From an uncultured Ignavibacteria bacterium (lineage in GTDB: Bacteria; Zixibacteria; MSB-5A5; WJJR01): a DNA stretch of 64,000 nucleotides. The stretch lies in NCBI GenBank assembly GCA_964440935.1, contig CAYTTY010000012.1:12873-76872 (forward strand), in the 5' to 3' direction. Of this stretch, positions 18,220 to 60,033 are shown one piece after another. The notes under the pieces are model-generated. The model did no database searches. It was not told where the DNA came from and was given only the letters and a program-made list of their open reading frames with translations. The translations under genes were made by a program, and so were the position numbers. Numbering within the stretch: position 1 is the first letter of the stretch; every line of letters starts with the position of its first letter.

Positions 18220-18490
18220 GATCAGTTCCCCCTTCGGCGGAGAGGCAATATAGGAACGCGCCGCTGCGGAGGAAACCCCGCAGCGGGGAAATCGGAGTGG
18301 ACAGAGTGGATGGTAGCCTCACAATAGAGCGATTATCAGATGTCCGTCCGATTGAGAAAGAGCGAGACTTGTTTCACTTGGTATTCAGAATGAAGCGAAT
18401 CTACCTCTGAATGGTTGAATGTGGGCACGAGAATCTCATCCCACCGCAAGCGGTGGGGCACCCCGCTCCGAAATGTGGCACCGGGACAGG

Positions 18491-32747: not shown

Positions 32748-34334
32748 ATGCCAAGACAGATTTTGATTGCTGATAAGATTGCCGACGATGGGATCAATTT
32801 CCTGAGATCGAAACCCGAGTATGATGTCACGGTGACAACCGGACTCGCCGAAGATGAACTGTGCCGGGTCATCGAGCCGTGTCATGCCGTGGTTGTGCGC
32901 AGTGCCACGAGCATCAGTGAACGTGTCATATCATCAGCACCCCAACTGGCCGTGATCGGACGCGCGGGCATTGGTATCGATAACATTGACATTGAAGCGG
33001 CAACGGCGCGCGGCGTCGTGGTGCTGAATACACCCGATGCCAACGCGACGACAACAGCAGAGCTGACGATCGCGCATTTGCTGTCGTTGAGTCGCAACCT
33101 GCCCACCGCCGATCAGTCGGTACGCAACGGCCAGTGGGAACGCAGTGCCCTCACCGGGATTGAAGTGGCTGGGAAGATTCTGGGCATCGTGGGGTATGGT
33201 ACGATCGGCCGGTTGGTTGCCAAGCGTGCTAAGGCGCTGGAGATGTCATTGCTGGTGCATGATCCCTACGTCACCGATGACGTCATTGCGGAGACCGGCG
33301 GTACCGCCGTGGATTTAAACACTCTTTTGTCGCAGTCGGACTATGTCACATTACATGCCCCCGTGACGGCGCAAACGCGTTCGATGATCGGCGCAAAGCA
33401 GTTATCCCTGATGAAGCCGAGCGCACGGCTGATTAACTGCGCGCGCGGGGCCTTGGTCGACGAAGAAGCGCTAATCCAGGCGTTGGAAGCCGGGACAATT
33501 GCCGGCGCCGCGCTCGACGTGTACGCCAATGAACCGCCTGAGGGTTCGCGTCTGTTGACATTTCCCAATGTTGTCTTCACACCGCATTTGGGCGCATCGA
33601 CGCGTGAAGCACAGGTCGCTGCCGGAATGCAAATTGCAACACAGATCGATACGTTTCTGCGTTCGGGTGAAGCGATTAATGCCGTTAATCTCTCCCCCGT
33701 CTCGCGTGAGCAACTGGCCAAACTCAAACCGTTTCAGAATCTGGCGCGCGCGCTGGGACGGTTGCTGTCGACACTGGCGCCTGAAGCGCTCAAGCGTGTT
33801 GAGATTACACTGGCAGGCGGACCATCCGGTGTCAATGTCAGTCATGTCGCCACCGAGACGCTGATTGGAATTCTCGCCGATCATCATCGCGGGCCGGTCA
33901 ACCAGGTCAACGCGGCGCATCTCGCTAGGCGCCAGGGATTGAGTGTTGTCGAATCACGCGCGGCGGAATCCTCTGAGTATCACACGCTCCTCCAAGTCGT
34001 CGGCAAGACCACCAACCATGAGCTGTCGGTTGCCGGAACGTTGTTTGATGAACGGCATCCGCGACTGGTGCGCATTGATGATTTGAAGATCGAAGCGATT
34101 CTCGAAGGGCAACTACTGATTACACGCCATAGCGATCGCCCCGGTGTCGTGGCCGCCATCAGCGGTGCGATTGCCGAGGCCGGTGTGAACATCACGCGTA
34201 TGCACCTGGGGCCTGTTGGTGATCAGGGATTGGCAGTGGCCGTCATTGGTCTCGACCAGCCGTTACCGACCAGCGCGCGCGATGCGATCCTCTCCATCGA
34301 TACCATTCTGAACATTCACGAGCTGGCGCTGTGA
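32748..34334 (+). CDS. serA: D-3-phosphoglycerate dehydrogenase with ASB and ACT regulatory domains
   Basis: 528 aa. 2-hydroxyacid dehydrogenase NAD motif GIVGYGTIGRLVAKRA, catalytic ...CARGALVDEEAL...DVYANEP..., and a C-terminal ACT domain (LLITRHSDRPGVVAAISGAIAEAGVNI). Confidence 0.9.
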   Translation: MPRQILIADKIADDGINFLRSKPEYDVTVTTGLAEDELCRVIEPCHAVVVRSATSISERVISSAPQLAVIGRAGIGIDNIDIEAATARGVVVLNTPDANATTTAELTIAHLLSLSRNLPTADQSVRNGQWERSALTGIEVAGKILGIVGYGTIGRLVAKRAKALEMSLLVHDPYVTDDVIAETGGTAVDLNTLLSQSDYVTLHAPVTAQTRSMIGAKQLSLMKPSARLINCARGALVDEEALIQALEAGTIAGAALDVYANEPPEGSRLLTFPNVVFTPHLGASTREAQVAAGMQIATQIDTFLRSGEAINAVNLSPVSREQLAKLKPFQNLARALGRLLSTLAPEALKRVEITLAGGPSGVNVSHVATETLIGILADHHRGPVNQVNAAHLARRQGLSVVESRAAESSEYHTLLQVVGKTTNHELSVAGTLFDERHPRLVRIDDLKIEAILEGQLLITRHSDRPGVVAAISGAIAEAGVNITRMHLGPVGDQGLAVAVIGLDQPLPTSARDAILSIDTILNIHELAL

Positions 34335-35014
34335 CATCCGATAGTCCACAAACACAGCGCATCGACACCGTCATCTTCGACTGCGACAGCACGTTGTCGT
34401 CGATTGAAGGCATCGACGAATTGGCCGAACGTGCGGGCGTTGGCGAGCAGATTCGTGAACTGACCAAGGCGGCGATGGCAGGTGACATTAAACTCGAAGA
34501 CGTGTATGGTAAGCGTCTCGATTTGATTCGTCCCAATGCAGATGATCTGGCGTGGCTGGGCCGGCGATACTGCGAGATGATCGTTGATGGTGCACACCAC
34601 GTGATTGCCACACTTCAAGTGACGGGACGGGCAGTGCATATTGTCAGCGGTGGGGTATTACAGGCGCTTCACGTGCTCGCGGAGGAATTGAAGATAACTC
34701 GATCACATGTCGTGGGTGTCCCGGTGACTCTGTCTGACGACGGCACATATATCGGCTATGACGCGACGGCTCCCACGTCACGCTCAGGCGGCAAGACCGA
34801 AGTCATTCGCGGCATTACTGCGAATGGACGACGCGCGGTAATGATCGGTGATGGAGTCACTGATTTGGAGGCGCAGAGTCTGGGGATACCGGTGATCGGG
34901 TTTGGTGGTGTTGTGATACGTGAGGCCGTCAAGGCACAGGCCGATGCGTGGGTCAATGGGCCATCGTTGTTGGGTGTGTTAGCGACAATTGAGAGGTTGG
35001 AGATGGAGTTCTAG
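34331..35014 (+). CDS. serB: Phosphoserine phosphatase (HAD superfamily)
   Basis: HAD motif I VIFDCDSTL and a C-terminal GDGVTD motif. Translationally coupled to serA (start overlaps the serA stop). Confidence 0.75.
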   Translation: MTSDSPQTQRIDTVIFDCDSTLSSIEGIDELAERAGVGEQIRELTKAAMAGDIKLEDVYGKRLDLIRPNADDLAWLGRRYCEMIVDGAHHVIATLQVTGRAVHIVSGGVLQALHVLAEELKITRSHVVGVPVTLSDDGTYIGYDATAPTSRSGGKTEVIRGITANGRRAVMIGDGVTDLEAQSLGIPVIGFGGVVIREAVKAQADAWVNGPSLLGVLATIERLEMEF

Positions 35015-35025
35015 TGTACCTTGTG

Positions 35026-35054
35026 GCCCTGATGGCGCTTTTTGCCATCAGGGC
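35026..35054. repeat. 29-bp hairpin GCCCTGATGGC-GCTTTTT-GCCATCAGGGC. It is an inverted partner of 35466-35494.
   Basis: Perfect 11-bp stem. The same stem with a reverse-complemented loop recurs at 35466-35494, and the flanking 5 bp on each side are also similar. Not followed by a U-tract. Confidence 0.6.
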
Positions 35055-35086
35055 TTGCGTAACTCACATTGGCTGTCACTGCGATT

Positions 35087-35397
35087 TAGAGTGAATGTCA
35101 GAAGTATTTTCCGTTTGGGATTGCGATCCGTACTGTCACCAGGGTTCCCCGCTGTCATCCCCTCGAAAGAGGGGATCCATTTTGCTTTTGGCCACCACTC
35201 ACCGTCTGAACTTGGATTCACGCTTTCGCCCTTCGGCTCGCTCAGGACAAGCGGGAATGACAACGAGTTATAGCAATTATCAAAATTCCGTTCCGGTGTT
35301 CGGGGCCGTCGCATGGCCGTCCAGGCCAGAGGGTACGGGCGAGGCGCCCGTACTGCATCGCCTTCTCAATCGGAAGATAGTTCTGAGAATCGCTCTA
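35087..35397. mobile_element. Degenerate tandem MITE-like remnants carrying IS630-type terminal repeats (about 35089-35267 and 35271-35395)
   Basis: TA+GAGTGAATGTCAGAAGTATTTTCCGTTTGGG at 35087-35119 resembles the IS left end GAGCGATTGTCA... and the RC of the MITE end at 43642-43653. TA+TAGCAATTATCAAAATTCCGTTCCGG at 35269-35300 resembles the MITE left end at 43398. TGAGAATCGCTC+TA at 35384-35397 resembles the right end TGACAATCGCTC+TA. Confidence 0.45.
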
Positions 35398-35465
35398 CAA
35401 AGCCGTTCTAGCGGTTTCTTGTGTTTTTGATATGTCTCAGTAAAGACGAAGCGTGAGTCAAGCGA

Positions 35466-35494
35466 GCCCTGATGGCAAAGAACGCCATCAGGGC
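35466..35494. repeat. 29-bp hairpin GCCCTGATGGC-AAAGAAC-GCCATCAGGGC. Inverted partner of 35026-35054.
   Basis: See 35026-35054. Together they form ~39-bp imperfect inverted repeats flanking a ~411-bp non-coding segment. Confidence 0.6.
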
Positions 35495-35520
35495 CATAAA
35501 TCTGCTCGGTGTTCCGTTTA

Positions 35521-36633
35521 GAGCGATTGTCAGATTAAATTTCCGATTGCGGCGGTTTGGCTGGTGCGTTGTGGGTTGTCGATCACATCGAGAATGGCGT
35601 GATCCAAGCGTTCGAGTAATTGGTCGAGATGGCGACAGATATAGTTGTTGAACCAGGTGGCCTTCATCACCAGCCAGATGCGTTCAATCGGGTTGAGATC
35701 GGGGGAGTAGGGCGGCAGATACATCACCTCCCACCCGTGCCAATTCAACGATTTGCGTTTGTGCCAGGAGGCATTGTCGACAATGAGGATGTTGCGTCGT
35801 CGCTGGACGGTCACCGATCGGTCTGCTTCATTGAGGAACGCTTGGAAGGTGTCCGAGTCCGAATGAGACGCTTCGATGGCAAAGAACTCGCCGGTGCGGG
35901 GACAGACCATCCCCATGACATTCATCCGCAGGTGATCGCCGTTTTTGGTGCTGCGGGTCTTGTGACCCTTTTTGTCCCAGCGCCGTCGGGGTCGCGGATC
36001 CCCCTCGAATCCCGACTCGTCGGCAAACCATAACTCGACGTCGGGATCCTGGCTAAGTTCCTGTAGCTGTTGCCGAAACGCCTCCCGCAGAACCTCATCC
36101 TGACGATCCGGCCACGGTTGTGGCACCTTGAGGGCAAAGCCCTGCCGATGGAAGAATCGCACCACCGTTTCATAGCTGCACTCCACCTGATAGGTCTCAG
36201 AGAGGTAGCCGTGGAACGCCTTGGCGGTCCAAAACGTGCGGTCCGCCTGTTCGGGGTCGCTGATCAGACGGGCGAACTGCGTGGCTTGTTCGCCTCGAAG
36301 AATCGCTGTCCGACCGGGACGTTTCTGCACAATCAACCCATCCACACCGCGGTCGTTGAATGCTTTAACCCAACTGCGCAGCGACCGCTCCGTCACCACC
36401 AACGCCGCGCACACGGTGTCACGCGGTGTGCCGGCCAGCAGAAACTGAATCGCGGTACAGCGGACCGACGTTTCGGGTGAACCCACACGCCCCGCCCCCT
36501 TCAACTCCTGGATACTCGCGTTCTCCGGATTCGGCTCGAGTGCGCGGCGTGCCATGAACACACCATGCCGTAATCACTTACAAAAGTCTAGAATTTTCTG
36601 GCCCCAAACGGAAAATATTTATGACAATCGCTC
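35521..36633 (-). mobile_element. IS630-family (Tc1/mariner-like) insertion sequence, 1113 bp, with terminal inverted repeats GAGCGATTGTCA...TGACAATCGCTC and a TA target-site duplication (35519-35520, 36634-36635)
   Basis: The left end TA|GAGCGATTGTCAGATTAAATTTCCG and right end CGGAAAATATTTATGACAATCGCTC|TA are inverted repeats. A TA duplication is the IS630 hallmark. The element contains a single DDE transposase ORF. Confidence 0.8.
35530..36561 (-). CDS. IS630-family DDE transposase
   Basis: 343 aa. N-terminal HTH region, then D..D..E: ...LWFADESGF..., ...NILIVDNASWHK..., ...YLPPYSPDLNPIERIW.... The stop codon lies inside the left TIR. Confidence 0.85.
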   Translation of the reverse strand: MFMARRALEPNPENASIQELKGAGRVGSPETSVRCTAIQFLLAGTPRDTVCAALVVTERSLRSWVKAFNDRGVDGLIVQKRPGRTAILRGEQATQFARLISDPEQADRTFWTAKAFHGYLSETYQVECSYETVVRFFHRQGFALKVPQPWPDRQDEVLREAFRQQLQELSQDPDVELWFADESGFEGDPRPRRRWDKKGHKTRSTKNGDHLRMNVMGMVCPRTGEFFAIEASHSDSDTFQAFLNEADRSVTVQRRRNILIVDNASWHKRKSLNWHGWEVMYLPPYSPDLNPIERIWLVMKATWFNNYICRHLDQLLERLDHAILDVIDNPQRTSQTAAIGNLI

Positions 36634-37037
36634 TATTCCTCGTCAAGGACGTCATCAGCGGTGAATGCGCCGCGTACGTGCGTGATGGCACGATGACCCG
36701 AGGAGTCCTGTGGGGCAACGGTGACGACATCGAAGCGGTAGCCGCCGGGCATGTCGGGGGCGTTTTCGATATAGGCGCCGGCGGCGCGGATGATGGCCGA
36801 TTGCTTTTGGGGTGTGATCCATTCCAGTGGATCACCAAAAGAGACCGTGCGCGCGGATTTGACTTCGACAAACACAATCGTTTCACCATCGCGAACGATC
36901 AGATCGATTTCGTTACGGGTATACGGTGAACGCCAGTTACGGGACAGAATCAGACAGCCATTCGATTCGAGATAGCGCGCGGCTTGCTCCTCTCCATCGC
37001 GTCCGGTGTGCTGGTGATGGTCGGGAGACGGGGTCAT
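36633..37037 (-). CDS. yraN: YraN-family (UPF0102) endonuclease
   Basis: GEEQAARYLESNGCLILSRNWRS...EIDLIVRDGETIVFVEVKSR matches the YraN signature. It lies downstream of rnhB, as in the conserved rplS-rnhB-yraN arrangement. The stop codon (RC of 36633-36635) is built from the IS end base plus the TA duplication. Confidence 0.75.
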   Translation of the reverse strand: MTPSPDHHQHTGRDGEEQAARYLESNGCLILSRNWRSPYTRNEIDLIVRDGETIVFVEVKSARTVSFGDPLEWITPQKQSAIIRAAGAYIENAPDMPGGYRFDVVTVAPQDSSGHRAITHVRGAFTADDVLDEE

Positions 37038-37048
37038 TGTTGTGGCTC

Positions 37049-37705
37049 TTAGATTTCCAGACGATTCTGTTGCCAGTCGCGCACAGGTGTGAATGACTTA
37101 CGGTGTATCGGAGACGGACCCAATCGCGATAACGCGGTGAGGTGTTCCGGCGTCGCGTACCCTTTATGACGCACAAACCCGTATCCGGGAAACTGCCGCT
37201 CGTAATCTTCCATGATGCGGTCGCGGATTTCTTTGGCAATGATCGATGCAGCGCCAATGGAGATGCACAACTTGTCACCGTCGACAATGGCGCGTTGGGG
37301 TATGTCCAGATTGGGAATGCGGAACTTACCGTCAACCAAAACCGCTTCGGCTTTCACCGGCAGCTCATCGAGTGCGAGACGCATTGCCGTGTAGCTGGCC
37401 TGCAGGATGTTCTGGGAATCGATCCCGGCCGGATCGACCAGACCGACTCCCCATGAGAGCGCTTTCTCACAGATATTAGGATACAGAGCAATGCGTTGGG
37501 CTGCACTGAGGAGCTTGGAATCGGTGATGCCGGTCCCGTCGAAATCCTGCGGCAAGATCACGGCGACTGCAACAACCGGACCGGCTAACGGACCGCGTCC
37601 GACTTCATCGACGCCGGCCACACAGCGCCAGCCGCGATCCCAGAATTGGCGTTCGTACTCCCAGCGATCGGATTGGACATTCTGCCTGGGGACCCTCTGC
37701 GCCAT
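37049..37705 (-). CDS. rnhB: Ribonuclease HII
   Basis: VAGVDEVGRGPLAGPVVAVAVIL...DSKLLSAAQR... shows the RNase HII catalytic motifs. Confidence 0.85.
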   Translation of the reverse strand: MAQRVPRQNVQSDRWEYERQFWDRGWRCVAGVDEVGRGPLAGPVVAVAVILPQDFDGTGITDSKLLSAAQRIALYPNICEKALSWGVGLVDPAGIDSQNILQASYTAMRLALDELPVKAEAVLVDGKFRIPNLDIPQRAIVDGDKLCISIGAASIIAKEIRDRIMEDYERQFPGYGFVRHKGYATPEHLTALSRLGPSPIHRKSFTPVRDWQQNRLEI

Positions 37706-37727
37706 GCCAATGTCCAGCGTCCCGTGA

Positions 37728-38084
37728 TCAGGCTCCGGTGTCGGCTTTCTTTTCTTTCACCCGCGCGGCCCGTCCACGCCGCTGACGCAGATAGTAGAGT
37801 TTGGAGCGACGGACCTTGCCTCTGCGCATGGTTTCCACCTTGGCAACATTTGGCGAGTGAAATGGAAAGACACGTTCCACGCCGATGCCCTGGGAGACTT
37901 TGCGCACGGTAAACGTGGCGCCCGCGCCGGTGCCGCGCTTTTGGATGACGGTCCCCTGGAACACCTGGATACGTTCCTTGTCGCCCTCTTTGATGCGGAC
38001 GTGGACCTTGACCATATCCCCCGGGGCGAAATCCATTGTCCGGTCGGCCGGTGTGTTCAGTCCGACAGTTGTCAGATCAACCAT
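37728..38084 (-). CDS. rplS: 50S ribosomal protein L19. The start is taken at MVDLTTV (38084), overlapping the trmD stop; the longer ORF to 38183 is unlikely.
   Basis: ...[84 protein letters not shown] matches L19 throughout. Confidence 0.85.
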
Positions 38085-38871
38085 GGTCATTCTCCTTACG
38101 TGTGTCTTGATCATGCGACCGACCGGTCGCGGGTGAATCGGACATCGCGGCGGGAGCCGACTGGCTCCCGCCGCTCTTATCATCGGCCTCTGAACTCAGC
38201 AGTTCAGGCCGGAATCGTTCGGTCGTCAGACGTGCCTGCTGCCGTCGCCACGCGCGCACATTGGCGTGATGCCCCGAGACCAGAACCGACGGTACTTCTA
38301 ACCCCCGCCAACTCTGCGGACGCGTGTAATGCGGTGCACCGAGACCGTTGATGACAAACGAGTCTTCGCGTCCGGAATCATCGTTGCCTAAGAATCCGGG
38401 CAGGCGACGCGCGACGGCATCGACGATCACCATCGCCGGCAATTCGCCTCCGGTGAGCACATAGTCGCCAATACAGAGACGCAGGGGCTTGAAGTACTCA
38501 AAGATGCGTTCATCAATTGCTGTGTAATGCCCGCACACAAAGATCAAACGGTTGCTCGTGGTTAACGAGTTGGCCTTGTCTTGATCGAACAGCTCACCGC
38601 GCGCGGCGGGGATGATGATCGTCGCATCGTCATCGCCGCGGATCGCCTCAATGGCACGCGCAATCGGCTCGGCCATCAGGATCATCCCGCCACCGCCGCC
38701 AAAGGGTGTGTCGTCGACCGAACGATGCGGATCATCGGTGAAATCGCGCAAGTCGTGCACATTGACCGACAACACACCACGCTCCAATGCGCGCGCCATC
38801 ATCGACTCGCGCAAAAAGCCGGTAAACATACCGGGAAATGTGGTGATGACGTCAATCTGCATCGTGCTCAA
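38077..38871 (-). CDS. trmD: tRNA (guanine37-N1)-methyltransferase TrmD, with a ~40-aa low-complexity C-terminal tail
   Basis: [13 protein letters not shown]...[17 protein letters not shown]...[14 protein letters not shown] is the SPOUT/TrmD pattern. Confidence 0.9.
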
Positions 38872-38880
38872 CCTGCTGCC

Positions 38881-39393
38881 TTACTCTTCCTCGATCATTC
38901 CCGGAATCGGAGCTATCGTCATGATGCCGGATTCGAGGTCGATGTTGGTGATGAATTCCGTGACCGCCGGAATCATGAACTCCCGATCGTTGTGTTGACA
39001 GACATAGACGTCGTTGGCCGCATTTTCAATAATCTCGATAATCTCGCCGACGTCTTCACCTTCGGTCGTCTGCACCCGCAAGCCGATGATCTGATCGTGA
39101 AAGAACTGCCCTTCCGGCAGTGTGACCCGCTCGGATTCGTCGATAACCAGTTCGCCATTGATCCACGGACGGATATCTTCGGGTGATTCGAACTCCTCGG
39201 TTTCAATCAGCACAAAGCCCTTGCCGGATCGCACGCCGGTGATGTGCACGGTCATCGACTTGTTGCGCGCCGTGAGAGTCACCTCGTCGAGTTCTTCGAA
39301 GCGCTCCCAGTTGTCCGCGTATGGCCAGAGGCGAAACACCCCTTCGACCCCGTGGGCCTTGCCGATGCGTCCCAACGCGACGGGGTCATTCAT
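38881..39393 (-). CDS. rimM: 16S rRNA processing protein RimM
   Basis: LGRIGKAHGVEGVFRL (RimM N-terminal) plus a PRC-barrel C-terminus. Lies between rpsP and trmD. Confidence 0.8.
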   Translation of the reverse strand: MNDPVALGRIGKAHGVEGVFRLWPYADNWERFEELDEVTLTARNKSMTVHITGVRSGKGFVLIETEEFESPEDIRPWINGELVIDESERVTLPEGQFFHDQIIGLRVQTTEGEDVGEIIEIIENAANDVYVCQHNDREFMIPAVTEFITNIDLESGIMTIAPIPGMIEEE

Positions 39394-39423
39394 GATCGTG
39401 CGGTCCCGGGTGTGGGTCCGACC

Positions 39424-39942
39424 TTACGACTCAGATTTCTCCTCGGTGGGCGCCTCGGTGGGCGCCTCCGTGGCTTCCTCACCGCCCTCGGCCGGCTTTT
39501 CTGCCTCAGCGGCCTTGGCTTTCTCAGCGGCTTTGGCTTCTTCAGCCTTCTTGGTTTCGTCAGCCGCTTTCTTGTCGGCCTCTTCCTGGGCGACCATCTT
39601 GGCCCGCTCTTTCTTCTTGGCTTTGTGCGGGCGCTCGGTAATGGCGTCTTTGACGTCCATCCCCGTGATGTCCTCGCCGTTCTGCGCCTTTTCCCAAATC
39701 TGCGTCATGCCGCACTGGCGAAAGAGCGTGTTGACCGTATTCGACGGGGTCGCGCCTTTGCGCAACCAGTCGAGTGTACGCTCGACATTGACCTTCAATT
39801 TTGCCGGACGTTCGAGCGGACGGTACCAGCCGAGCACTTCGAGAAACCGGCCGTCTCGCGGCATGCGCGAGTCGGTCGCCACAAAGCGGTACATCGGCTG
39901 TTTCTTCTTGCCCATGCGGCGCAGACGAATCTTAACGGACAA
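39424..39942 (-). CDS. rpsP: 30S ribosomal protein S16 with a ~85-aa Lys/Ala/Glu-rich C-terminal extension
   Basis: MSVKIRLRRMGKKKQPMYRFVATDSRMPRDGRFLEVLGWYRP is the S16 core. The tail ...KKAADETKKAEEAKAAEKAKAAEAEKPAEGGEEATEAPTEAPTEEKSES is in the same ORF. Confidence 0.85.
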   Translation of the reverse strand: MSVKIRLRRMGKKKQPMYRFVATDSRMPRDGRFLEVLGWYRPLERPAKLKVNVERTLDWLRKGATPSNTVNTLFRQCGMTQIWEKAQNGEDITGMDVKDAITERPHKAKKKERAKMVAQEEADKKAADETKKAEEAKAAEKAKAAEAEKPAEGGEEATEAPTEAPTEEKSES

Positions 39943-40066
39943 TGTGTTACCTCCCTACTAATGACCTATGATGTCTACAAACTGAATTCGCGTTTGCTCA
40001 CCGTTCTTTGTAGCGCGGCCGCCTCGGCCGCTCTGAGCAGGCGAGGCGCCTGCACTACAATAATCG

Positions 40067-41389
40067 CTATAACGGAAACGGCATCTTCGGCATGCCCTTC
40101 ATACCGCCCTTGCTCATCTGTTTGATCATCTTCTTCATCATCTGGAACTGCTTGAGCAGCCGGTTGACGTCCTGAATCGTGTTGCCGCTGCCCTTGGCGA
40201 TGCGCATGCGGCGCGAACCGTTGAGCACCTCCGGATGACGGCGCTCGTACGGTGTCATCGAGAGGATCATCGCTTCCATGCGGGCCTGCGCGCGTTCGTC
40301 GACCTGCATCCCCTTCAACTGCTTGCCGACACCGGGGATCATGCCGAGGACCGATTCGAGCGGACCCATCTTCTTCAACTGCTGCAACTGCTCATAGAAG
40401 TCTTCGAAATCAAACTGGGCTTTGCGCAGTTTGTCTTCGAGCGCGGCGGCATTGTCCTCATCAAAGTTCTCTTGTGCCTTTTCGACGAGCGAGACAACGT
40501 CGCCCATGCCCAGGATGCGCGAGACCATACGGTCGGGATGGAACGGTTCGAGCCCGTCGAGCTTCTCCCCCGTCCCGACAAACAGGATCGGCACGCCGGT
40601 CGCTTTGACAACGGATAGCGCCGCGCCCCCACGGGCGTCGCCATCGATCTTGGTGAAAATGACACCGTCAATGCCGATGCGTTCGGCGAATGATGACGCC
40701 GATGTAACCGCGTCCTGACCGGTGAGTGCATCAGCGACGAAGAACGTTTCGGTCGGCTCGACCTTCTCTTTAATCAACGAGACTTCACCCATCAATTGGT
40801 CGTCGATATGCAACCGTCCGGCGGTGTCGAGGATAATCAAGTCGGCGCCGGCGTCGGTTGCGGTCTGTACACCCTTGACAGCCACGTCGACCGGGTTGCC
40901 ACTGCCGGTGTGCACGTCGACACCGACCTGCTTACCGAGTGTTTTGAGCTGTTCGATGGCGGCGGGACGTTGCAGGTCGGCGGCAATCATGTGCGGTTTG
41001 CGTCCGGCTTTCTTGAAATGCATCGCGAGTTTGCCGCACGTGGTCGTTTTACCCGATCCCTGCAAACCGACAAGCATCCAGATCGTTGGCTGCGGTGACT
41101 TGGCGAAGTGCACCGGACGGTGCTGGCCGCCGAGCAGATCGACCATCTTGTCGTAGATGATCTTGATCATCTGCTGGCCAGGGGTGACCGACTGCAGGAC
41201 CTTGTCGCCCATGCTCTCGGTCTGCACGTCGTCGAGGAACGACTTGACGACCTTATAGTTGACGTCCGCCTCGAGCAGGGCGCGACGCACCTGCTTGAGC
41301 GCATCTTTGACGTTGGCCTCGGTGATCTTACCGTGGCCCCGGAGCGTCTTAAAGACACTGTCGAGTCGGTCGCTCAGATTCGAAAACAT
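40067..41389 (-). CDS. ffh: Signal recognition particle protein Ffh
   Basis: NG domain with GLQGSGKTTT, DTAGR and the SRP54 pattern. The C-terminal M domain is Met-rich (...KKMIKQMSKGGMKGMPKMPFPL). Confidence 0.9.
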   Translation of the reverse strand: MFSNLSDRLDSVFKTLRGHGKITEANVKDALKQVRRALLEADVNYKVVKSFLDDVQTESMGDKVLQSVTPGQQMIKIIYDKMVDLLGGQHRPVHFAKSPQPTIWMLVGLQGSGKTTTCGKLAMHFKKAGRKPHMIAADLQRPAAIEQLKTLGKQVGVDVHTGSGNPVDVAVKGVQTATDAGADLIILDTAGRLHIDDQLMGEVSLIKEKVEPTETFFVADALTGQDAVTSASSFAERIGIDGVIFTKIDGDARGGAALSVVKATGVPILFVGTGEKLDGLEPFHPDRMVSRILGMGDVVSLVEKAQENFDEDNAAALEDKLRKAQFDFEDFYEQLQQLKKMGPLESVLGMIPGVGKQLKGMQVDERAQARMEAMILSMTPYERRHPEVLNGSRRMRIAKGSGNTIQDVNRLLKQFQMMKKMIKQMSKGGMKGMPKMPFPL

Positions 41390-43263: not shown

Positions 43264-43397
43264 TTGTTCACCGGCATTGTCATTCTGAACGGAGTGAGGA
43301 AACTGCTGCTTGCGCGTGGCGGGGGTATCAAGAGCAGATCCCTCGCTTCGCTCGGGATGACACATTGATCTTGGTACACCGGGCATCGGTTGTTGTA

Positions 43398-43653
43398 TAG
43401 CAATTGTCATAAATCCTTTCCGTTTGGATCAGGGTGCCACGGGCCTTTAGGGGTGTGTCGCACCCCCCCCGAGAATCAGAGCCTTCGGGAGGGCGAGCCT
43501 CCCGGCGAGCCGCAACGGCATGTTCCACACGGCGGCTCGGCGGGAGCCTCGCCCTCCCCAGTCTGAGGTGATGATAGACAGCAGGTTTTTCAACACGCCC
43601 CTTTAGGCCCGTGGTATTCAAATACAAACGGACAATACTTCTGACAATAGCTC
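43398..43653. mobile_element. Non-autonomous MITE (256 bp) with IS630-type ends TAGCAATTGTCA...TGACAATAGCTC, flanked by a TA duplication (43396-43397, 43654-43655)
   Basis: The left end TATAGCAATTGTCATAAATCCTTTCCGTTTGG closely matches the RC of the IS630 right end (36604-36635). The right end CAAACGGACAATACTTCTGACAATAGCTCTA matches the IS right end. The interior has no ORF and forms long hairpins, for example GGGAGGGCGAGCCTCCCGGCGAGCCGC...GCGGCTCGGCGGGAGCCTCGCCCTCCC. Confidence 0.6.
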
Positions 43654-43829
43654 TAGTGTCGTGTCCCGGAAATAGCTTAAAGAAGTCGCTTCCACGCCGC
43701 GTGCCGTCATGCGCCCTCGCATGACGGCTATCTTCTTTCCGGACAAGGCGTCACCCGAGGGCGGGTGACGCCACGGGGTACAATTTCGTATAGAAACTGA
43801 TGAACCGTATTTCTGGGACACGACACTAG
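43652..43829. repeat. 15-bp inverted repeat CTAGTGTCGTGTCCC...GGGACACGACACTAG enclosing two perfect 11-bp-stem hairpins (43703-43728 and 43747-43772)
   Basis: GCCGTCATGCG-CCCT-CGCATGACGGC and GGCGTCACCCG-AGGG-CGGGTGACGCC lie between the 15-bp inverted repeats, immediately abutting the MITE's right end. Confidence 0.5.
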
Positions 43830-43835
43830 AACGGT

Positions 43836-43864
43836 CGCCTCGGCCGTTTGGTCCGGCCGAGGCG
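43836..43864. repeat. Perfect 11-bp-stem hairpin CGCCTCGGCCG-TTTGGTC-CGGCCGAGGCG, containing the CGGCCGAGGCGGCCGC motif also found at 40015-40031
   Basis: Lies 3' of the PASTA gene (minus strand) but has no T-tract. It shares a 16-nt GC-rich core with a hairpin between rpsP and ffh. Confidence 0.45.
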
Positions 43865-43927
43865 GCCGCTCTACATGTTGTCGAGATCTGCGTGCGGACA
43901 GGAATGACCGCACCGCTTACGATCGAG

Positions 43928-59670: not shown

Positions 59671-60033
59671 AGATATTATACGGAGAAAACGTGTGGTGGT
59701 AAACCGTGCTGAGCGGAGATGATGTAAGAGAATGAGGGACTCACAACCTCGTGTAGGTGCGGCGAAGAGCCGGACCTACGCGATGCACCTATGGGTTTTT
59801 CAACACGCCGCAAGGGGTGCGTTGAAAAAGGTGCTTGATTGCTGAGAACATGCATTTGTAGGGGCGTATTGAATACGCTCCCTTCACGTAACGGTAACAG
59901 TGACAGGGCGCACTCTCAGTACGTCCCTACGAATGATCGTCCCGTCAACATGCGTTAGGATTGCGCCTCAGGCCTTTTCAACACGCCCCAAGGTCAGTGG
60001 TACCCCGCAAAAGAAAATCACATCGATTTGAAC
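59671..60033. repeat. Hairpin-rich intergenic region containing two copies of the dispersed motif TTTTCAACACGCC (59797-59809, 59975-59987). A third copy lies at 43587-43599.
   Basis: Hairpins include GGTTTTTCAACACGCC-GCAAGG-GGTGCGTTGAAAAAGG (59796-59829) and GGGGCGTATTGAATACGCTCCC (59861-59882). No ORF is present. Confidence 0.5.

Follow-up and report, generated by a model that had tools for sequence, protein, structure and literature searches.

Between two convergent gene blocks of the stretch of DNA analysed here (64 kb, hereafter the window) lies an IS630-family insertion sequence (IS) of 1113 bp, at positions 35521–36633 as established by a base-by-base sequence check. The IS is flanked by a serC-serA-serB-like block on one side and by the rpsP-rimM-trmD-rplS-rnhB-yraN block on the other. 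The last gene of the latter, yraN (36633–37037, minus strand; 134 aa), belongs to the UPF0102/YraN family according to its match to NF009154 (110.5 bits, cutoff 109) and to its relatives. The serB-like gene and yraN both converge on the IS, and both blocks are complete, in agreement with an earlier reading of the letters (the first-pass annotation), which had placed the element between the ser operon and the rplS-rnhB-yraN block without disruption of either. The "serCAB" label used in that annotation is provisional for its third gene. The product of the gene at 34331–35014 (plus strand) is a HAD-IB phosphatase; it matches SerB best, but the score of 105.9 bits does not reach the curated cutoff of 144. 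The assignments of serC and serA have good support.

The two ends of the IS are formed by terminal inverted repeats of about 33 nt, one at the 3′ end of the transposase gene (35521–35553, plus strand) and one at its 5′ end (36601–36633, minus strand), both defined by the repeat search and by an ungapped alignment of 16 ends. The left repeat consists of a perfect 12-nt tip, GAGCGATTGTCA, at 35521–35532 and an inner conserved block, TTCCGATTG, and the same 12-nt tip closes the element on the right (TGACAATCGCTC, 36622–36633). The stop codon TGA of the transposase gene (35530–35532) falls within the 12-mer of the left repeat. The two repeats are imperfect, with about 7 mismatches over 33 positions; together with the flanking TA dinucleotides they span 35 nt (35519–35553 and 36601–36635) and are 80% complementary, so that the realignment proposed by the first-pass annotation recovered matching inverted repeats. 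Its description of a 1113-bp element with such repeats and a TA at both ends is likewise exact in coordinates and letters. The left TA copy occupies 35519–35520, and the right copy (36634–36635) provides the first two bases of the yraN stop codon on the minus strand. Allowing at most one mismatch, the 12-mer tip occurs five times in the window, compared with 0.59 occurrences expected, and none of 100 shuffled sequences reached five.

The element is taken up by a single long minus-strand ORF (35530–36561), which encodes 343 aa from a GTG codon at 36561. An in-frame ATG lies two codons further on, at 36555, and would yield a protein of 341 aa. This shorter protein is identical to the database protein P0001, and 341 aa is also the most frequent length among the 2,235 transposase homologues detected at E<1e-20; on both grounds the ATG is likely to be the start, rather than the GTG, and we place the gene at 35530–36555. 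The single intact DDE transposase ORF reported by the first-pass annotation thus stands, and only its length of 343 aa is amended. The protein matches the NCBIfam profile NF033545 (transpos_IS630) with 234.3 bits against a cutoff of 100, covering profile positions 4–295 of 299, and the Pfam domain DDE_3 with 126.7 bits (E=8.6e-37). Its N-terminal part matches the HTH domains HTH_23/28/29 (residues ~31–91), HTH_32 (61–135) and HTH_33 (108–165), most of them above the Pfam cutoffs. The catalytic triad comprises D179, D260 and E291 in the 341-aa numbering (D181, D262 and E293 in the 343-aa numbering), with the spacing D-80-D-30-E. In an alignment with 19 relatives of 70–94% identity, all three residues are invariant, and the full-length ORF retains every other invariant family residue as well. 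Furthermore, the mariner-derived catalytic domain of SETMAR aligns with the protein at the second D and the E. The IS therefore combines the marks of the IS630 family, namely the family profile, the HTH region, the DDE triad, inverted repeats around a single gene in about 1.1 kb, and insertion into and duplication of TA, and the family assignment of the first-pass annotation is confirmed by the above-cutoff profile match together with the DDE_3 and HTH domains.

The junction with yraN records how the IS is situated. The yraN stop codon TAG (36633–36635; cta on the plus strand) is composed of the right TA and, as its third base, the terminal base of the IS at 36633, exactly as had been read before. 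Removal of the IS and one TA from the window restores the frame ...GAC GAG GAA TAA ACG..., and the reconstructed empty allele, in which 35520 is joined directly to 36636, reads GAATAAACGG. An orthologous empty site of the kind that the first-pass annotation had proposed to look for is present in the related assembly L014, where the uninterrupted yraN/serB junction contains a single TA and reads ...GAC GAA GAA TAA ACG.... BLAST homology between the window and L014 (86.9% nucleotide identity) ends exactly at 36634. We infer from these sequences that the ancestral stop codon of yraN was TAA. The YraN relatives bear Zixibacteria names. In the surroundings of the closest pair, at 86% and 78% protein identity, trmD-rplS-rnhB-yraN likewise runs towards a convergent serB-like gene and serA. 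The yraN–serB spacer measures 228 bp in L014 and 211 bp in L015/L016, none of which carries the IS, as compared with 1,618 bp in the window.

A repeated IS can also bring together sequences that do not belong together, and we considered whether an assembly or binning error had joined two unrelated contigs across this element. ISs often cause mis-joins in metagenome-assembled genomes (MAGs), the Logan contig L001 stops within the IS, 475 bp in, and most transposase homologues lie on contigs of about the size of an IS, many of 1.1–1.5 kb, as is expected of a repeated mobile element. By comparison, three related assemblies (L014, L015 and L016) have the two flanks side by side and likewise convergent, and the L014 junction is recreated to the base once the IS and one TA are taken out. 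Moreover, L001, which comes from an independent Logan assembly but probably represents the same population and hence is not an independent biological confirmation, is 100% identical to the window over 36160–41037, including the right junction between yraN and the IS. The agreement with L001 and the synteny in the relatives exclude a chimeric join, and we give an artefact next to no credence.

We consider it very likely that an intact and otherwise ordinary member of the IS630 family (Tc1/mariner superfamily) has inserted into the stop codon of yraN, at its TA, in a Zixibacteria chromosome, where it is accompanied by MITE-like derivatives. By analogy with characterised family members, the IS would have entered by cut-and-paste insertion into the TA dinucleotide with which the TAA stop of yraN began, and staggered joining followed by repair would have duplicated this TA. 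Because the element starts with G, the insertion turned the stop codon from TAA into TAG and left YraN unchanged. As the IS sits in the 3′ spacer where two convergent transcription units meet, every coding sequence is unbroken.

The neat repair of the stop codon raises the question of whether such sites serve the element as a safe harbour, that is, whether TAA and TAG stops are favoured targets at which the terminal G rebuilds a TAG. The insertion studied here behaves exactly in this way, and most ends of the clade to which it belongs start with G, with which TA forms TAG. However, about half of the ends of the relatives start with T, which makes no stop codon after TA. When more than 20 IS and MITE ends were searched for long open frames ending at TA plus the first base of the element, a real gene ended there only at the present IS. 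The three other long frames (at 18325 in the window, at 4325 in L005 and at 2913 in L006) are junk ORFs or run antisense to real genes, and general targeting of stop codons was rejected. In this regard, the reconstructed ancestral spacer of 205 bp contains nine TA sites, so that this particular TA would be struck by chance about one time in nine, and a hit on the stop codon is unsurprising. We therefore regard targeted insertion as very improbable and return to an ordinary insertion into one of several available TA sites.

The position of the IS also bears on how the locus may be transcribed. The transposase gene runs in the same direction as yraN, and its start lies 77 nt past the yraN stop codon. 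Consensus scans of the transposase strand found no terminator-like site between the two genes and no promoter-like site in the 78-nt transposase leader. Because the gene shares the orientation of yraN, begins near its stop codon without an intervening terminator-like site and lies ahead of the hairpin described below, read-through from the yraN operon is a plausible source of transposase mRNA and could add to transposase transcription. The leader folds no more stably than shuffled sequences (z = +1.2), and a protective leader RNA structure against read-through is accordingly unsupported; a search of 34000–38000 for known RNA families returned none at E≤1. On the far side of the IS, a GC-rich hairpin with a 13-bp stem (35464–35496, minus strand; about –25.6 kcal/mol), detected in the repeat search and conserved in L014, followed the yraN stop codon at a distance of about 25 nt before the insertion and now lies 1115 bp further away, beyond the IS. 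This separation of yraN from its downstream hairpin, the sense orientation of the transposase gene relative to the upstream operon and the MITE-like elements nearby are observations that go beyond the first-pass annotation. That annotation had also suggested that the IS may supply outward promoter activity, a suggestion that does not hold. An outward xTGACA hexamer can be picked out by eye 7 nt from each IS tip, with no –10-like hexamer 17 nt further on, and the scan of the IS ends was empty of promoter-like sites. Moreover, both the serB-like gene and yraN point at the IS, which makes the idea moot, as any outward transcript would be antisense to them. We thus reject a functional outward promoter.

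Sequences with ends of the same type occur elsewhere in the window. A search with a profile of the ends (nhmmer) recovered eight IS-type ends at E≤8e-6, the next match having an E-value of 0.92. One pair is that of the IS itself, and two further pairs delimit MITE-like elements. The first, MITE-1 (35087–35397), was found by repeat and profile searches and has a TA-flanked body of 307 bp (35089–35395) that lies 121 bp from the IS and contains no ORF; its outer ends are 88% and 81% like the IS repeats, and L014 and L015 lack it in their orthologous spacers. The second, MITE-2 (43396–43655), is likewise TA-flanked and free of ORFs, with a body of 256 bp (43398–43653) and ends 87–88% like the IS repeats. 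Overall, the MITE ends match the IS repeats at 81–88% over 31–33 nt, with nhmmer E-values of 4e-8 to 2e-7. By comparison, their interiors are unrelated to each other and to the IS within these 64 kb of the genome. In addition, tip and profile searches revealed a solo IS-like end, TA GAGCGATTATCA...CCGATTG, at 18325–18356 (plus strand), whose partner is unrecognisable. Inside MITE-1, a third IS-like end is present at 35269–35301 in the orientation of the outer left end, which suggests either a tandem pair of elements, one end of which has been lost, or a composite element.

These short TA-flanked elements with shared bipartite ends are best read, from their sequences, as MITEs, that is, non-autonomous IS derivatives that would be mobilised in trans by the present transposase or by that of a sister element. 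The IS is the sole autonomous copy visible in the window, and no second full copy was found within these 64 kb. The link to the MITEs, however, consists of 75–88% similarity at the ends, with interiors not shared with the IS, and a sister element may be their true driver. A stronger proposal, in which the transposase is made by growth-rate-tracking read-through from the upstream operon of ribosomal-protein and tRNA-modification genes and the IS is the live driver of several intergenic TA-flanked miniature families, appears to us unlikely.

The window contains further small repeats. A head-to-tail series of three small elements with shared TA boundaries occupies 43396–43877, namely MITE-2 (43398–43653), a 171-bp element (43656–43826) with different inverted repeats, GTGTCGTGTCCCGGAAATA, and a palindromic element of ~47 bp (43829–43875) with the tip GAGCGG, similar to that of the IS, and with a relative at 40009–40057. 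The IS relative on contig L017, from another sample, adjoins an end of the GTGTCGTGTCCC type. The motif GGTTTTTCAACACGCC occurs inside MITE-2 (43585–43600) and again at 59784–59815 and 59962–59993, and may be part of another small repeat family. MITE-1 is bracketed by a 47-nt inverted duplication (35021–35067 and 35453–35499; 87% complementary), and each arm on its own folds into a strong hairpin, GGCCCTGATGGC...GCCATCAGGGC. L014 has one copy, which is the orthologue of the arm on the yraN side. The arm on the serB side is missing from L014, but further 3′ it is the better match to the L014 copy. It could have arisen as a duplicated terminator module, as a small mobile hairpin or through a MITE-linked rearrangement. 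The hairpin GGCCCTGATGGC... was also considered as a genome-wide repeat and set aside, as the window holds just the two local copies. Within MITE-1, a hairpin with a T-rich tail (ATCCCCTCGAAAGAGGGGAT CCATTTTGCT) at 35157–35185 on the plus strand, the strand of serB, resembles a terminator and could terminate the serC-serA-serB-like operon.

The IS and its relatives form a clade. The nearest, protein P0002 on contig L017, shows 94% protein and 90.5% nucleotide identity and comes from a different sample. The element on L008, an Ignavibacteria MAG, measures 1114 bp and encodes a transposase with 83% amino acid identity, and that on L003 measures 1115 bp. L003, L008, L017 and L018 share the architecture, the bipartite repeat and the TA flanks, whereas their insertion sites are unrelated. 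The 16 ends of the window and its relatives align without gaps over ~31 nt and disclose a common bipartite end, in which TA is followed by (G/T)AG(C/T)GNTTGTCA and, ~9 nt later, by TTCCG(A/T)TTG. Members reside in MAGs of Zixibacteria, Ignavibacteria, Desulfobacterales, Omnitrophota and Herpetosiphon and on two Logan contigs. The clade was found solely in uncultured lineages, and the end TA-GAGCGATTGTCA...TTCCGATTG is its own; the closest relatives on plasmids of cultured bacteria are at most 30% identical and are annotated as IS630 family transposases. Its wide occurrence in anaerobic-sediment MAGs of several phyla at 70–94% protein identity hints at horizontal spread.

How recently the IS arrived, and whether it can still move, may be judged from the same data. 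The first-pass annotation had called it a recent, possibly active copy on account of its intact ORF and perfect target duplication. The intact ORF and the tips are consistent with this description; the duplication does not bear on it, as a 2-bp TA repeat carries no information on age. Against mobility stands the possibility that the IS is a fixed relic, a lone dead-end copy that merely looks intact. The exact transposase is recorded on a single contig, the nearest relative at 94% protein and 90.5% nucleotide identity belongs to another sample, the GC content of the IS (57.5%) equals that of the window (57.4%), as would fit long residence, and its two repeats are mismatched in part. Look-ups of the exact protein in the contig index (343 aa, 341 aa and P0001) returned no record, and searches of JGI metagenomes returned no hits for a same-species empty allele and none for close IS copies identified by their end sequence. 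However, the ORF is of full length and retains the DDE triad with all invariant family residues, the 12-nt tips are perfect, and imperfect inner repeats are normal for the family, as seen in the relatives and in ISY100 (PMC2170065). Furthermore, the IS has no counterpart in the closest relatives of the host locus (L014 and L015/L016). Taken together, a relic is a reading that we take seriously but doubt, and a recent, possibly active IS is plausible from the state of its gene and ends.

The element is thus an ordinary member of the IS630 family, correctly described by the first-pass annotation, with MITE-like elements nearby. The value of the analysis lies chiefly in annotation, as a mobile element and the MITE-like repeats probably derived from it are now labelled in a genome of an uncultured phylum, and the serC-serA-serB-like and rpsP...yraN blocks beside it are shown to be undisturbed. 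The clean boundaries of the IS can be used for repeat masking and for strain-level searches for insertion polymorphism. What is known of the IS630/Tc1/mariner mechanism is unchanged by the finding.

The IS resembles several known systems. ISY100 (ISTcSa) of Synechocystis PCC6803 inserts almost exclusively into TA, which it duplicates, and has imperfect inverted repeats; its transposase alone excises and integrates the element, excision proceeds by double-strand breaks, joining of the 3′ ends to a TA is staggered by 2 bp, and the TA duplication arises on repair (PMC2170065). By analogy with ISY100, the N-terminal HTH region of the present transposase would bind the bipartite repeats and the DDE domain would cut and paste, and the transposase alone probably suffices for this catalysis. 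Both ISY100 and IS630 of Shigella sonnei, members of the Tc1/mariner superfamily, resemble the IS in carrying one transposase gene between imperfect terminal inverted repeats within ~1.1 kb, and in combining an N-terminal HTH region with a C-terminal DDE domain and a 2-bp TA duplication (PMC2170065). The present IS differs from both in that it is distant in sequence, has its own end sequence and is known here from sequence alone. The metagenomic clade members P0002/L017 and L008 are far closer to it, sharing its length (1113–1115 bp), the 341-aa transposase, the ends and the TA flanks, while their hosts and insertion sites differ and their nucleotide identity is 80–90%. For the MITE-like elements, the corresponding system is RUP of Streptococcus pneumoniae, whose inverted repeats resemble those of the resident IS630-family element IS630-Spn1, a resemblance taken as evidence of trans mobilisation (PMC2229807). 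Like MITE-1 and MITE-2, RUP is short, TA-flanked and without ORFs, and has IS-like inverted repeats (PMC2229807). By comparison, MITE-1 and MITE-2 are longer (256–307 bp versus 107 bp), have unrelated interiors and occur in few copies in 64 kb.
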